DNA of 61,443 nt from a virus (lineage: Duplodnaviria; Caudoviricetes), in the IMG/VR virus record IMGVR_UViG_3300043399_000848, positions 1 to 61,443 of that record; one strand, given 5' to 3'. The notes beneath the pieces are model-generated. The model did no database searches and was not told the DNA's origin. It saw nothing but the letters and a program-made list of their open reading frames with translations. This document shows, in pieces, positions 56,861 through 61,443 of this stretch. Each line of letters starts with the position of its first letter. Positions within the stretch are counted from its first letter, which is position 1. The translations under genes and the position numbers were made by a program.

Positions 56861-57013
56861 CGAAGAAATGACCCCCCTCCCCCCTGTTCGATCGGGGCTG
56901 GCGGGTGGTTTCGGCCCCCCTATGCCCCCGCTTTGGGTCCCCGGCGCGCGGGTCCCATCCACTATGGGGGTGTGGCTCGGTCACAACACTCCGGAACTTA
57001 CTTCGGGGGCCTC

Positions 57014-57469
57014 ATGAGCGACATCGAGAACCGGCGCCGGCAGGGCTTTGCTGAGCTCGCGGGCGATGTCCCCCGCGAGTCGCGGCCGGAGGTCGATGGG
57101 TTCGAGCACATGTACGAGCCCCAGATCCGCCGGCCCAACAGGCAGGGCAAGCTCAACCTGCGGGCCGTTGTCGACGTGCTCGACAGCTACGGCCTGGACC
57201 CGATCGAAGAGCTGGCCAAGGTCCTCGTGGACAAGGAGCCGGCCCGGTCTCGCGATGGCGCACCGATCATCGACCCCGCGACGGGGCAGCCTGTGATGAA
57301 GCCGAAGCTCGACATCGAGACGCACGTCAAGCTGCTGACGGAGCTGGCCCAGTACACGCGGCCGAAGCTGAAGGCGGTGGAGATCACGAACAAGACGCCC
57401 GAGCTCAGTGACGAGCAGATCGAGCGTCGGCTGCAGGCGCTCATGGACCGGAATAAGGGAGCCAAGTGA
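57014..57469 (+). CDS. Terminase small subunit (putative)
   Basis: DPIEELAK, LTELAQYTRPKLKAVEI, LSDEQI; position upstream of terL. Confidence 0.6.
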   Translation: MSDIENRRRQGFAELAGDVPRESRPEVDGFEHMYEPQIRRPNRQGKLNLRAVVDVLDSYGLDPIEELAKVLVDKEPARSRDGAPIIDPATGQPVMKPKLDIETHVKLLTELAQYTRPKLKAVEITNKTPELSDEQIERRLQALMDRNKGAK

Positions 57470-57729
57470 TGGAAACGATCAAGAAGCTCTGGGATTACGC
57501 GTGCATCACGTGGCTGTCCCTGACGCCCAAGGCTCAGATCACGGTCCTCGTGGCCCTGTTCATCATGTTCTTCGCAGGCGCCGTGCTGGCCCAGGGCAAG
57601 ACCTGGCAAGTTCTGGAGCACGCGTGTGACAAGTCCGGCGCCGTGAACACGCTGGTCATTGCCGTGGCCGAGCCCGGCTTCGTGCAGATCAGCTGGGACA
57701 ATTCGTCGGTCTGCGGCAAGGCGTCGTGA
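57466..57729 (+). CDS. Small membrane/secreted protein
   Basis: TM/signal segment, two Cys in the exported part; overlaps both neighbours. Confidence 0.6.
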   Translation: MMETIKKLWDYACITWLSLTPKAQITVLVALFIMFFAGAVLAQGKTWQVLEHACDKSGAVNTLVIAVAEPGFVQISWDNSSVCGKAS

Positions 57730-60158
57730 CCGACCTGGCGTCACTGTCCACAGAAGAGAAGCTGGAACTTCTTCAGCTTCTGGAGATCCGCGACCGTCGC
57801 CAGCGCGAAAACATGCTGGCGTCGTACAAGCCGTACGCCAAGCAGAAGGAATTCCACAACGCAGGCGCCACGTACCGTGAACGCCTGTTCATGGCTGCTA
57901 ATCAGTGCTCAGGCCCGTGGACGTGGGTTGAAACGCCGGGCTCCAAGGCCCTGTCCGTAGATACGTTTTTCGAGCCAGGTGCACGTGTTCAAGCGTGGGA
58001 CGGTGAATCTCGATGTGTCGCTCCAGTGCGGCACGGATATCTGAAGGGCATTGAGAAAGCGTATCGTCTGGTCCTGGAGACGGGAGAGTTCTTTGACGTG
58101 ACGGCCAGTCACCAAGTGCTGACCGAACAAGGCTGGCTTTCGGTTTCCCGGATAGTGTCGCTTTCAAGTGGTCTGCGTTGCTGGCAAACAACCGAAGATT
58201 TTCTGGCCAGTTGTGTTGCGGGTGGCCGTCTACATGATCCACGACTTCCGCTGGATCCAGGTAGCGACCCAGCACGACTTCTAGAACGAGTCGGTGCTCG
58301 GGAACGTAGCCTGTGCTTCTCGCTTGAGGATGCAGAGGCGCGTACACGCTCACATACCAGCCTTTTGTCAGACAACGTCCTCCACCCCAACGCTGGCTGT
58401 GACCCGCGCCAGATCGAGGCCCTGTGCGCGCAGTTCGCAGGCCCAGCGATGAGCAGTAGCGTTCTACCGTTGACCGGTGAACACCAAGCCTTCTTGCAAC
58501 TTGCTCGTGTGTCTCACCTTCTTCCTCAATCAGGCGACGAACCTCGTCTCCTTTCTCTACCAGCAGACGTCCTGGTAGGAATTGTGGCTGGATGTTTCTC
58601 CTCTGAAGAAAAGACTGCACTACGTGAGTTTTCAGACCGAGTCGCTCGGCTATCTCTTGACGTGTCAGGCCCTGGGAGTTCCATTGAAGAACTTGGTCAA
58701 GATGCGGCTCGACTAGGGACGTTCTACCCATTTGATGGTCCTCGGCTGGTTGGTGGGAGGACGATCACTGCCGTCGTCCCGATTGGTTACCAGCCGATTC
58801 TAGACTGTCATGTGGACAGGGTCAATTGCTATTGGGCAGGCGGGGTGGTGCATCACAACAGCGGCAAGACGCTATCTGCTGCATACGAGATCGCGATCCA
58901 CGCCACCGGCCGCTACCCAGACTGGTGGCAAGGCCGCCGGTTCCACCGCCCGGTCAGCATCCTCGTCGGCTCGGAGTCTGGCGAACTGACCCGCAAGGGC
59001 CTGCAGCGCCTGATCGTGGGCTCGCCCCAGAAGCGGGAAGAGTGGGGCACTGGTGCGATCCCGAAGGAGTGCCTGGGCAACACGACGATGAAGCCCGGCG
59101 TGCCTGACGCGCTGGCCAGCGTGACTGTCAAGAACGAGTACGGCGGAGAGTCCGTCATCCAGTTCAACAGTTATGACCAAGGGCGCTCGAAGTGGCAGGC
59201 GGACACAATAGATATCGTTGCGATGGACGAAGAGCCTCCGATGGATATCTACACGGAGGCGCTGACTCGTACCAACGCGACGGGCGGTATCGTCTTCGTC
59301 ACGTTCACCCCGTTGCTGGGCATGTCCCAGGTGGTCAAGCGCTACCTGACGGAGAAGCCTGAGGGTACGACCGTCATCCGCATGACGATCGACGATGCGG
59401 AGCACTACACCCCCGAGGAGCGTGCGCGGATCATCGCCGCCTACCCCGAGCACGAGCGGGAGGCCCGGACGAAGGGCGTCCCGATGCTCGGCAGCGGCGC
59501 GGTGTTCCCCGTGGCCGAGTCCGCGATCAGCGTGGCACCGTTCGAGATCCCCGCCCATTGGGCACGGATCAACGGGATCGACTTCGGATGGGACCACCCG
59601 ACTGGCTTCGTCTGCATGGCCCACGACAGGGACACGGACACGGTCTACGTGTACGACGCCTGGAAGCTGAAGCAGACCCCCGTCATGACTCAGGCCGGGA
59701 TGGTCGTAGGCAAGGGGTACCAGAACATACCCTGGGCCTGGCCGCATGACGGCCTCCAGCATGACCGCAATTCCGGGGAGATCCTGAAGGACCAGTACCA
59801 GAAGTTCGGGATGAACATGATCTCGGAGAGGGCCCAGTTCGAGAACCGTCCCGACGGGAAGCCTGGTGGCAACAGCCTTGAGGCTGGTGTATCAATGATG
59901 CTGGAGAGAATGCAAACACGCAGACTACGCGTGTTTTCCAACTTGGAGGACTGGTTCTCGGAGTTCCGGCTGTACCACCGGAAGGAAGGGATCATCGTCA
60001 AGGAGGACGACGACATTCTGTCCGCGACGCGCTACGGGATCATGATGCTGCGCAAGGCGAAGACCTTGCTGGAGATGGAACCGAGCCGTGGCACTTTCAA
60101 CCGACCCGCTGCGAACCTGCCTGTTTTCCAGGTGTTCAACGCGGACTGTGCGTACTGA
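57726..60158 (+). CDS. terL: Terminase large subunit (P22-like), intein-containing precursor (810 aa; 492 aa after splicing)
   Basis: Spliced Walker A AANQ/SGKT, Walker B IVAMDEEP, TFTPLLG, nuclease GIDFGWDHP and DDILSATRY. Confidence 0.93.
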   Translation: MTDLASLSTEEKLELLQLLEIRDRRQRENMLASYKPYAKQKEFHNAGATYRERLFMAANQCSGPWTWVETPGSKALSVDTFFEPGARVQAWDGESRCVAPVRHGYLKGIEKAYRLVLETGEFFDVTASHQVLTEQGWLSVSRIVSLSSGLRCWQTTEDFLASCVAGGRLHDPRLPLDPGSDPARLLERVGARERSLCFSLEDAEARTRSHTSLLSDNVLHPNAGCDPRQIEALCAQFAGPAMSSSVLPLTGEHQAFLQLARVSHLLPQSGDEPRLLSLPADVLVGIVAGCFSSEEKTALREFSDRVARLSLDVSGPGSSIEELGQDAARLGTFYPFDGPRLVGGRTITAVVPIGYQPILDCHVDRVNCYWAGGVVHHNSGKTLSAAYEIAIHATGRYPDWWQGRRFHRPVSILVGSESGELTRKGLQRLIVGSPQKREEWGTGAIPKECLGNTTMKPGVPDALASVTVKNEYGGESVIQFNSYDQGRSKWQADTIDIVAMDEEPPMDIYTEALTRTNATGGIVFVTFTPLLGMSQVVKRYLTEKPEGTTVIRMTIDDAEHYTPEERARIIAAYPEHEREARTKGVPMLGSGAVFPVAESAISVAPFEIPAHWARINGIDFGWDHPTGFVCMAHDRDTDTVYVYDAWKLKQTPVMTQAGMVVGKGYQNIPWAWPHDGLQHDRNSGEILKDQYQKFGMNMISERAQFENRPDGKPGGNSLEAGVSMMLERMQTRRLRVFSNLEDWFSEFRLYHRKEGIIVKEDDDILSATRYGIMMLRKAKTLLEMEPSRGTFNRPAANLPVFQVFNADCAY
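57898..58731 (-). CDS. HTH-HTH-HNH homing endonuclease encoded antisense within the intein
   Basis: GLTRQEIAERLG and THEQVARRLGVHRSTV HTHs; GYVPEHRLV...VVDHVDGHPQHNWPENL HNH; GAGGA RBS 7 nt before ATG. Confidence 0.88.
   Translation of the reverse strand: MGRTSLVEPHLDQVLQWNSQGLTRQEIAERLGLKTHVVQSFLQRRNIQPQFLPGRLLVEKGDEVRRLIEEEGETHEQVARRLGVHRSTVERYCSSLGLRTARTGPRSGAGHSQRWGGGRCLTKGWYVSVYAPLHPQARSTGYVPEHRLVLEVVLGRYLDPAEVVDHVDGHPQHNWPENLRLFASNADHLKATLSGKPKASLVRSALGDWPSRQRTLPSPGPDDTLSQCPSDIRAALERHIEIHRPTLEHVHLARKTYLRTGPWSPAFQPTSTGLSTD
57906..58859 (+). mobile_element. Intein (318 aa) inserted in the terminase Walker A motif
   Basis: Block A C1-SGPWTWV, block B VTASHQVL, block F ILDCHVDRVNCYWAG, block G VVHHN, +1 Ser. 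Confidence 0.92.
58797..58825 (-). promoter_or_regulatory. Antisense sigma70 promoter inside the intein, for the HNH gene
   Basis: Minus strand TTGACC-17 nt-TAGAAT; the spacer holds a CTGTC-N5-GACAG palindrome. Confidence 0.7.
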
Positions 60159-60247
60159 ATCCGCTCGGTGGGGTGGAGACGCGAAGCCTTCAAGCGATGG
60201 TGGCGTGGCGCCGGCCCGCGTAAGAAGGCAGCCGGCACCTGACAAAC

Positions 60248-61443
60248 ATGGACCAAGACAAAGACGATGACGCAGTAGGACGCGAGGCCGCTCGACAGGA
60301 GCGGCTGCAGGCGTTCGGCCGCTCGCTTGCGTCCATGCGCGACAAGTGGATCCGGTCTCGGGCCGCGACCGGCTGGGACAAGCGGATCGTCGAGTCGCTC
60401 GACCAGTACCACGGCAAGGACCCGGCGACGCGGATGGCTGCGTCGATGATGGAGTCGGTCTACCAGGGATACCCGGTCACCGTCCGCGAGGCCCTGCCGA
60501 CGCGTTCGACGGTGTTCGTCGGTATCACCCGGCAGAAGACCAACAGCGCCGAGGCCCGGCTGGCGGACATCCTGTTGCCCACCGACGACCGCAACTGGGG
60601 CATCAAGCCGTCTCCGGACCCCGACCTGGCCAAGGCGATCACGGACGACGACGAGCTCGTCGACCCGGCCACGGGCGAGCCGATCCTGTTCGACATCCAG
60701 GGCAACGTCGTGGACAACCCTCAGGAGGGCCGCCCGGCGAAGAAGTCGCAGATCGCCCAGGCCGTCCAACAGGTGGCCAGGCAGGCCGCCGACGCGATGC
60801 TGATGGAGATCGACGACCAGCTGGTCGAGTGCGACTACAACGGCGAGATCCGCAAGGTGATCCACGACGCTGCCGTGATGGGCACGGGCGTGATCAAGGG
60901 TCCGATGGTGACCCGACGGACGCGCAAGGCCTGGCGGCAGAAGAAGGATCCGGTCACTGGCGAGAAGATGTACGTGATGGAGATCGTGGACGAGCTGCGC
61001 CCGGCCTCGTTCCGCGTCGACCCGCGCTTCGTCTGGGAGGACCCGACCTGCGGCGACGATGTGAAGAAGGGTCGCGGTGTGTTCGAGCTGGCCGAGATCA
61101 ACGACAAGCAGGTCCGAGACCTGGCCAAGCAGCCCGGGTACATCAAGGCCCAGCTGCGCGAGGTCATCGAGCAGGGGCCGATGCGAAGCGCTGCCCTGTA
61201 CGAGATCCAGCGCACGGAGATCGACAAGAACAACAGCGAGGACGGGAAGAGCTTCCAGCACTGGATCTACTGGGGCGACCTCGACCGGAAGGACCTGGCC
61301 GCGGCCGGAGTCGAGGTGGGTGACGAGGACGACCCTCTGCTGTCGATCAGCGGGTGCGTGGAGATGATCAATGACGTCGTCGTCCGCGCGTACTTGAACC
61401 CCCTCGAAGACGGGTCGATCCCGTACGACTTCTACCCCTGGGA
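60248..61443 (+). CDS. Portal protein, N-terminal part (wraps to 1-1247)
   Basis: ATG 60248, open to the window end; TRQKTNSAEARLADILLP, DAAVMGTGVIKGP. Confidence 0.85.
   Translation, partial: MDQDKDDDAVGREAARQERLQAFGRSLASMRDKWIRSRAATGWDKRIVESLDQYHGKDPATRMAASMMESVYQGYPVTVREALPTRSTVFVGITRQKTNSAEARLADILLPTDDRNWGIKPSPDPDLAKAITDDDELVDPATGEPILFDIQGNVVDNPQEGRPAKKSQIAQAVQQVARQAADAMLMEIDDQLVECDYNGEIRKVIHDAAVMGTGVIKGPMVTRRTRKAWRQKKDPVTGEKMYVMEIVDELRPASFRVDPRFVWEDPTCGDDVKKGRGVFELAEINDKQVRDLAKQPGYIKAQLREVIEQGPMRSAALYEIQRTEIDKNNSEDGKSFQHWIYWGDLDRKDLAAAGVEVGDEDDPLLSISGCVEMINDVVVRAYLNPLEDGSIPYDFYPW
61245..61443. repeat. Terminal direct repeat, right copy
   Basis: Matches 1-199 with one mismatch. Confidence 0.97.

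Follow-up and report, generated by a model that had tools for sequence, protein, structure and literature searches.

Splicing blocks on one strand and a homing-type HNH gene on the other: a probable intein in the terL gene of a phage lineage

Can a single insert in a phage gene serve protein splicing on one strand and encode its own homing endonuclease on the other? The question is raised by the terminase large-subunit gene, terL, of IMG/VR record IMGVR_UViG_3300043399_000848, a complete virus record of 61,443 bases (the window, meaning the whole stretch of DNA that was analysed), near whose right end terL lies. An earlier note, made from the letters alone, had read terL as split in its Walker A motif by a 318-amino-acid (aa) insert with intact intein blocks and an interior devoid of recognisable motifs, and had described on the opposite strand a 277-aa protein with two helix-turn-helix (HTH) motifs and an HNH motif, encoded in a frame other than the codon-aligned shadow frame, preceded by a GAGGA ribosome-binding site (RBS) and ending just outside the insert. 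It proposed a bidirectionally coded selfish element, with splicing on one strand and homing on the other, which would uncouple endonuclease expression from late terminase translation; it knew of no described example, subject to a check of the literature. Our analysis leads us to regard the insert as a class-1-type intein in the P-loop codons of terL whose homing endonuclease is a separate, antisense HTH-HTH-HNH gene, a reading to which we give a probability of about 0.85.

The insert in terL and the protein encoded opposite it

The insert occupies residues 61-378 of the terL precursor, with junctions AANQ|C...HHN|SGKT, and the Pfam matches of the terminase itself follow it (Terminase_6N, 2.1e-29, residues 379-599; Terminase_6C, 3.2e-17, residues 617-774). 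The nearest TerL relatives of the window are those of Rhizobium and Achromobacter phages. One of them, the intein-less TerL of Rhizobium phage RHph_N2, is 58% identical over the exteins, aligns on both sides of the insert with nothing between, and reads uninterrupted through the P-loop (...MAGNQL|GKT...). This colinearity, together with a contig of metagenome run X10 (below) that lacks exactly 954 nucleotides (nt), places the insertion in frame at a conserved site of the host gene.

The same insert is found in 17 other TerL proteins, at 31-49% identity, and the residues on which splicing would depend are preserved throughout: C1 is invariant in 18/18 proteins, in 18/18 locus translations and in all 23 loci described in the next section; H317 and N318 of block G are invariant in the 18 proteins and the 18 locus translations; block B, VTASHQVLT in the window, has an invariant H69, with T73 and L72 invariant or nearly so; and the +1 residue is S, C or T at 23/23 loci. 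An AlphaFold2 model built from 18 sequences reaches a predicted local distance difference test score (pLDDT) of about 90 for residues 1-95 and 269-318, and 40-83 between them. When this model was compared with the PDB using Foldseek, both ends of the insert together matched the Ssp DnaB, Mtu RecA and DnaE mini-inteins (E 4e-6 to 3e-4; target TM-scores 0.65-0.79 across both halves), and the middle matched nothing. We therefore accept the insert as a probable class-1-type intein with an insertion of about 170 residues at the usual endonuclease site, a call made on motifs, predicted fold and alignment, the curated hidden Markov models (HMMs) not being significant. Since its blocks are intact and terL is essential, the precursor would be expected to splice. 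A group I or group II intron was considered and rejected: an Rfam scan of 57500-59200 at E<=1 gave only one match, at chance level (E 0.62), to a long non-coding RNA.

The antisense open reading frame (ORF) has its stop six bases outside the insert. Its product matches HNH_3 of Pfam at 25.3 bits against a cutoff of 24.8, and three PHROG HNH endonuclease families far more strongly (4.1e-21, 6.4e-20 and 2.3e-18). E145, H146, H166, H173, N174, N178 and H188 are invariant in 18/18 rows of the HNH alignment; which of these are catalytic is our own reading of the motif. Over residues 77-196 the protein is 44% identical by tblastn to free-standing phage HNH genes, and Foldseek against BFVD matched its model to HNH and homing endonucleases (E down to 1.4e-9). 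The whole model found no PDB match at E<=0.001, and a profile search of PDB sequences matched only HTH proteins.

Beyond the nuclease core lies a C-terminal tail, of which residues 221-265 are predicted with pLDDT 81-93. It is present in 87/114 database homologues; the remaining 27 do not reach query residue 250, about two dozen of them being distant relatives whose alignment ends near residue 196 and which continue from there with unrelated C-termini of 85-100 aa. Position 1 of the antisense codons falls on position 1 of the sense codons (58731 and 57726 are both 0 mod 3), a relation that holds at 23/23 loci.

The features described in the earlier note thus stand: the split of terL within Walker A by 318 residues, the intact blocks A, B, F and G as judged from the invariant residues and the predicted Hint fold, the interior for which Pfam, NCBIfam and PDB sequences offer no match, the 277-aa protein with its two HTH domains and HNH core, the stop just beyond the intein, and the departure from the shadow frame.

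A full-length homologue of the antisense protein (260 aa, annotated as hypothetical protein KFK14_12890) is encoded on a 4.8-Mb contig of Sphingobium phenoxybenzoativorans, and may derive from a prophage in a host that is in culture.

Conservation and constraint on the two strands

Loci were collected by pattern scans with intein alignment, which yielded 21 viral loci from 78 pattern matches and 2 loci on contigs of metagenome-assembled genomes from 56. The window and its 22 related loci share one layout: no sense stop across the insert at any of the 23, and, at every one, an antisense ORF that keeps the same frame relation to the sense strand and is homologous to the HNH gene of the window (phmmer 9e-58 to 1.6e-99). 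Removal of those with identical intein DNA (L010, L013, L014 and L018) left 19 distinct loci, with intein GC contents of 45-59%. In later alignments the window stands in for its 98% relative L002; the 18-row alignments used for residue conservation omit L024, a near-duplicate of L023, and the 18-row analyses of identity correlation and third bases omit L023 itself.

To obtain an expectation for stops, the synonymous codons of the HNH ORF were shuffled within the gene, so that protein and codon usage were kept. Over the whole overlap the shuffles predict 4-9 sense stops, and over the interior 1.7-5.5 (median probability of none 0.008, maximum 0.129); 19/19 loci have none in either. On the other strand, 1-3 antisense stops are expected opposite the N-terminal splicing domain and 2-5 opposite the middle, and again none is present at any of the 19. 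In the C-exteins, the same relative antisense frame holds 276 stops against 289.7 expected in 6297 codons; the shuffle null is therefore calibrated. At protein identities of 30-60%, synonymous sites have been replaced many times over. An aligned ATG and a full-length antisense ORF are found at 16/19 distinct loci. The two-strand layout is thus confirmed as real, conserved and far above shuffle expectation.

The frame under constraint changes along the insert. Over sense residues 1-90 the mean pairwise identities of the sense and antisense products are comparable; over residues 91-270, compared in nucleotide bins, antisense identity is 0.22-0.74 as against 0.11-0.49 in sense, and it remains at 0.4-0.74 across the HNH core. 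Third-base identity, taken over fourfold-degenerate codons encoding the same residue, agrees with this. Read in the sense frame it is 0.664 in the N-terminal splicing domain under the HNH tail and 0.748 in the interior, as against 0.398 in the C-terminal splicing block, which has no antisense ORF, and 0.321 in the C-extein. Read in the HNH frame it is 0.645 opposite the Hint N-domain and 0.376 opposite the interior, and the latter value means that the sense frame imposes no amino-acid-level constraint there.

The 175 sense codons of the interior are thus a passenger frame with no detectable constraint beyond the avoidance of stops; purifying selection acts on the antisense protein from end to end; and some 88 codons serve two products at once, the Hint N-domain and the conserved C-terminal tail of the HNH protein, under constraint in both frames. 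Because selection removes stops from the sense frame, that frame is translated straight through as one precursor. The proposed architecture, with splicing blocks on one strand and an HNH gene on the other, is in this way supported by the 23 loci, the shuffles and the pattern of constraint, which show selection maintaining both.

We lean, by a little, towards a stronger version of this result: that the 88 or so codons (57906 to about 58170) are a true case of bidirectional coding for two folded, functional parts, the tail being specific to the intein-embedded family, and that block F in addition holds a promoter by way of rare ATA and CTA codons. If so, splicing blocks and homing-gene expression signals would be mutually locked, and the element would set two precedents: an intein with its endonuclease gene written antisense across the splicing domain, and an intein with an antisense HNH.

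At two loci the antisense frame is open well upstream of the aligned ATG, for 70-135 codons, running through the C-terminal splicing block into the C-extein (L009:3008-4051 and L012:3023-4234, minus strand).

Table 1. Positions in the window of terL, its insert and the antisense gene, with the evidence behind each feature
Feature	Positions	Strand	Evidence
terL precursor ORF, 810 aa; P22-like Terminase_6 large subunit	57726-60158	+	ORF call and family matches
N-extein, 60 aa; ends ...FMAANQ, first half of Walker A / P-loop	57726-57905	+	alignment to intein-less TerL
Putative intein, 318 aa / 954 nt; C1 to HHN, +1 Ser	57906-58859	+	invariant residues, predicted Hint fold
N-terminal splicing domain, intein residues 1-95, blocks A and B; read antisense, also the tail of the HNH protein	57906-58190	+	pLDDT 85-95; aligns to DnaB, RecA and DnaE mini-inteins; synonymous constraint in both frames
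Intein interior, residues 101-275; stop-free, poorly conserved, without recognisable domain	58206-58730	+	identity and stop counts
C-terminal splicing domain, about residues 269-318, blocks F and G (GYQPILD...GGVVHHN)	58710-58859	+	pLDDT 86-93; invariant residues
C-extein; begins SGKT, second half of Walker A	58860-60158	+	alignment to intein-less TerL
Empty site R487|S488, where L002 (98% identical, IMG/VR) has a second intein, of the canonical LAGLIDADG kind	59186-59187	+	comparison with L002:4282-5280
Antisense ORF, 277 aa plus stop; HTH-HTH-HNH homing-type endonuclease	58731->57898 (stop 57898-57900)	-	ORF call, HMMs, homologues
First HTH domain, HNH protein residues 8-44	58600-58710	-	GerE/HTH_24 matches at 13-42; helices, pLDDT 87-91
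Second HTH domain, residues 53-96	58444-58575	-	HTH_23 (2.6e-9) and Sigma70_r4_2 at 67-92; predicted structure
HNH nuclease core, residues 119-194 (EHRLV...VDHVDG..HNWPENL...H)	58150-58377	-	HNH_3 at 146-182; pLDDT 85-95
C-terminal tail, residues 197-277, antisense to Hint N-domain	57901-58143	-	stop counts, third-base identity, model
Predicted Shine-Dalgarno-like GAGGA, 9-13 nt upstream of antisense ATG	58739-58743	-	sequence match
Predicted sigma-70-like promoter TTGACC-17-TAGAAT, inside block F	58825-58797	-	consensus match

Predicted expression signals, mobility and the weighing of explanations

The GAGGA that the earlier note had named as the RBS of the antisense gene is present as a sequence match at a suitable distance from the ATG, and a Shine-Dalgarno-like 4-mer is found at -16 to -5 in 14 of the 16 loci with an aligned ATG. 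The L012 locus has no such motif. About 65 nt upstream of the antisense ATG lies the only sigma-70-like match in 57600-59200, a region for which shuffles give a mean of 0.4. The -10 box of this predicted promoter corresponds on the sense strand to ATT CTA, the Ile-Leu codons in the QPILD of block F (motif Q-P-I-[I/L]-D), and the choice of codons there is skewed at the other loci: the second block-F codon is ATA in 9 of the 10 loci with Ile, against a background of 103/587 Ile codons (0.175), and CTA or TTA in 6 of the 8 with Leu, against a background of 0.202. The hexamer TAnnAT consequently recurs at this position in 13/19 loci; L003 and L022, whose HNH ORFs are truncated, are among those that lack it. 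Applied as a control to the antisense strand of the C-exteins, the full promoter rule gives 3 matches in 17,322 nt. From these motifs it is plausible that the endonuclease is expressed separately from the late translation of terL. In run X20, which bears an RNA-Seq label and is marked 'probably DNA', one 182-nt contig covers 58238-58418 with weak joints whose sides are 20-23 letters long; contigs cannot show strand, and this run is given no weight here.

Evidence on mobility comes from the contigs of four metagenome runs, compared with window positions 57400-60300. In run X10, a subsurface metagenome, a 106-nt contig matches the window at 57836-57898 and again from 58866, with 13 non-matching letters between the two parts, so that 954 nt, precisely the length of the intein, are missing. 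Read by eye, the amino acids at its junction are those of the spliced product, and each of the five codons next to the empty site shows a synonymous difference from the window flanks; a cleavage-resistant site could account for this, or plain strain divergence. Depths in X10 are about 9 for the contigs of the flanks and about 3 each for the intein contigs and the empty-site contig. Occupied and empty terL alleles thus seem to coexist in X10, as judged from one short contig. Presence or absence at one exact site is documented, thinly, by this 106-nt contig and by the 58%-identical intein-less phage, and does no more than suggest recent homing. Among 153 locus pairs the largest mismatch is that of L004 and L011, whose C-exteins are 95% identical and whose inteins are 62% identical; intein replacement may be responsible, or very fast evolution of the intein.

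The element we favour, an intein with a separate antisense homing gene, would work as follows. Splicing of the precursor would restore AANQSGKT. The sigma-70-like promoter within block F would drive transcription of the HNH gene, and the gene's own RBS its translation, neither depending on the late expression of terL; the endonuclease would then cut intein-less terL alleles near the P-loop codons, and repair would copy the whole element in. Its most likely origin would be the invasion of a mini-intein by a free-standing HNH gene, in reverse orientation and at the usual endonuclease insertion point, after which only copies with an open sense frame would have survived.

Several findings count against this account or limit it. 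The HMM search of both frames that the earlier note had proposed succeeded on the minus strand, with HTH families and HNH_3, and yielded no significant Hint or intein model on the plus: for the sense insert Pfam has no intein or Hint family at E<=1 and no family at all for its interior, NCBIfam at E<=10 gives only two matches (E 0.017-0.042, to intein-bearing DnaB and rSAM models, around block B), and PDB sequences give none. The AlphaFold2 model places several helices of moderate confidence in intein residues 170-265 (10-residue block means 55-83), where synonymous sites show no amino-acid-level constraint; covariation forced on the sense frame by the antisense gene may have produced them artificially. 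At the block-F position the full two-hexamer promoter rule is satisfied in only 9/19 loci. The loci are phylogenetically related, so that the per-locus stop probabilities are not independent and are not to be multiplied. At L003, L016 and L022 (L003:2038-2628, L016:2783-3349 and L022:3008-3790, minus strand) the HNH ORF is truncated or damaged under a sense frame that is still open: the first HTH is gone from L003 and L016, 14 residues of the HNH core are missing from L016 as well, and no start aligns in L022; these look like stages of endonuclease decay. The intein-less contig of X10 is short, with 30 letters on its shorter side, a depth of 3.5 and 88% likeness. Finally, intein and extein identities are correlated over the 153 pairs (r 0.68), and in no pair is the intein clearly more similar than the extein; most of the history therefore looks vertical rather than the product of recent homing.

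The damaged loci and the correlated identities without clear transfer pairs are what one would expect if the antisense ORF were a decaying relic and the element now a mini-intein with a long linker, inherited only vertically. This is unlikely, given the predominance of full-length ORFs with an aligned ATG among the distinct loci and of full-length proteins among the database homologues (87/114), the invariance of the catalytic residues in 18/18 rows, the maintenance of antisense identity across the core, the constraint on sense synonymous sites, and the intein-less allele found beside an occupied one in X10. An unconserved sense interior would likewise suit a fractured gene or split intein, in which terL would be made as two trans-splicing polypeptides with the endonuclease gene between the halves. 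Just such a position, a free-standing endonuclease gene between intein halves, is described by Dassa et al. 2009 (PMC2677866). In the fractured genes, though, the endonuclease keeps the orientation of the host gene (PMC2677866) and the host gene forms two ORFs; here the endonuclease is antisense, and the sense frame is open at every locus, with 1.7-5.5 stops expected in its interior; on these two grounds, orientation and stop counts, we judge this explanation very improbable, and the least probable of those considered.

It is also conceivable that the antisense gene serves the phage, as a packaging-associated HNH protein acting with terminase, as a DNA-binding regulator, or through an antisense RNA that tunes terL. 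Many phages do encode an HNH endonuclease next to their terminase genes (PMC3592412), the protein has two HTH domains, and an antisense transcript would be complementary to terL mRNA. The gene, however, is found only inside the intein and is missing from intein-less relatives, the phage HNH endonucleases most closely related to its product are free-standing or intron-type enzymes that have HTH modules, and at some loci it decays while terL stays intact; a role for the phage is accordingly quite improbable.

Relation to known systems

The suggestion that no comparable element had been described does not hold. Gosselin, Arsenault & Gogarten (bioRxiv 10.1101/2025.01.02.630785) report actinobacteriophage inteins, including inteins of the terminase large subunit, with antisense ORFs for LAGLIDADG or VSR-like homing endonucleases, and they credit antisense LAGLIDADG inteins to Gorbalenya 1998 and Gogarten 2002. 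The resemblance is close: a contiguous intein, terL as host, a stop-free and structureless sense interior, a separate antisense endonuclease ORF, and the same proposed origin by invasion of the intein by a free-standing endonuclease gene. The window differs in that its endonuclease is of the HNH type with two HTH domains, HNH being described in the preprint in frame only, in that the phages are not actinobacteriophages, and in the overlap of about 88 codons with the splicing domain, where both frames are constrained.

Frame-specific selection has been reported by Phillips et al. in a dnaX intein with an out-of-frame endonuclease (bioRxiv 10.64898/2026.09.14.751524). That Synechocystis/cyanobacterial DnaX intein is like ours in having an interior that is free in the extein frame and an overlapping endonuclease frame under purifying selection, and in the coexistence of intein-free and intein-bearing alleles in populations; unlike ours, it has a LAGLIDADG endonuclease and lies in a cellular host, in dnaX rather than terL. 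Its endonuclease frame is named '+2ORF' in bioRxiv 10.64898/2026.09.14.751524 and antisense in bioRxiv 10.1101/2025.01.02.630785. The fractured genes (PMC2677866) share with the window a free-standing endonuclease gene between splicing halves and the same evolutionary model, but there the orientation is that of a host gene in two ORFs, as opposed to a continuous frame with an antisense endonuclease. The ShiLan insertion, an out-of-frame HNH in a phage methylase with no splicing domain detected (Arsenault et al. 2025, PMC11855218), is similar in that its insert has no stop in the host frame and hides an HNH in another; this HNH is on the same strand and without a splicing domain, whereas that of the window is antisense to intact Hint blocks.

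The enzyme itself is organised like the free-standing and intron-encoded phage HNH_3 endonucleases (the Pectobacterium phage Sabo group; I-PfoP3I of Phormidium phage Pf-WMP3), with an HNH core and HTH modules. Those relatives lack the conserved 80-residue tail, and the ones met in annotated phage records are located between genes or in introns and not inside an intein. Full-text literature searches, for which the supplementary tables of preprint 10.1101/2025.01.02.630785 were outside scope, found no antisense HNH in an intein. The antisense HNH type, the phage lineage, the dual-coding stretch over the splicing domain and the predicted codon-built antisense promoter therefore appear to be new here.

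With HNH, four endonuclease types are represented among inteins whose homing gene is a separate overlapping ORF, and the phenomenon extends beyond actinobacteriophages and cyanobacteria to a widespread lineage of freshwater and soil phages. The element supports the view of intein origin in which splicing comes first and the endonuclease invades later. It also offers a clean natural case of dual coding, with opposite-strand frames whose constraints are measurable region by region, a long stretch that is doubly constrained, and predicted expression signals built from rare codons inside a catalytic block. For annotation, the consequence is that gene callers will report a hypothetical protein inside terL or an over-long terminase.

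The close relative L002 carries a second terL insert, of 333 aa, with an in-frame LAGLIDADG_3 domain (9.5e-15) and a weak Hint_2 match; it starts with Met, not with Cys or Ser. This insert is missing from the window and from a contig of run X4, and a contig of run X3 (depth 287) has 1002 extra letters at the same place. The ORFs that flank terL (56933-57469, 57466-57729 and 60248-61441) have no Pfam match at E<=0.01; their positions would suit a small terminase, a small membrane-like protein and a portal.

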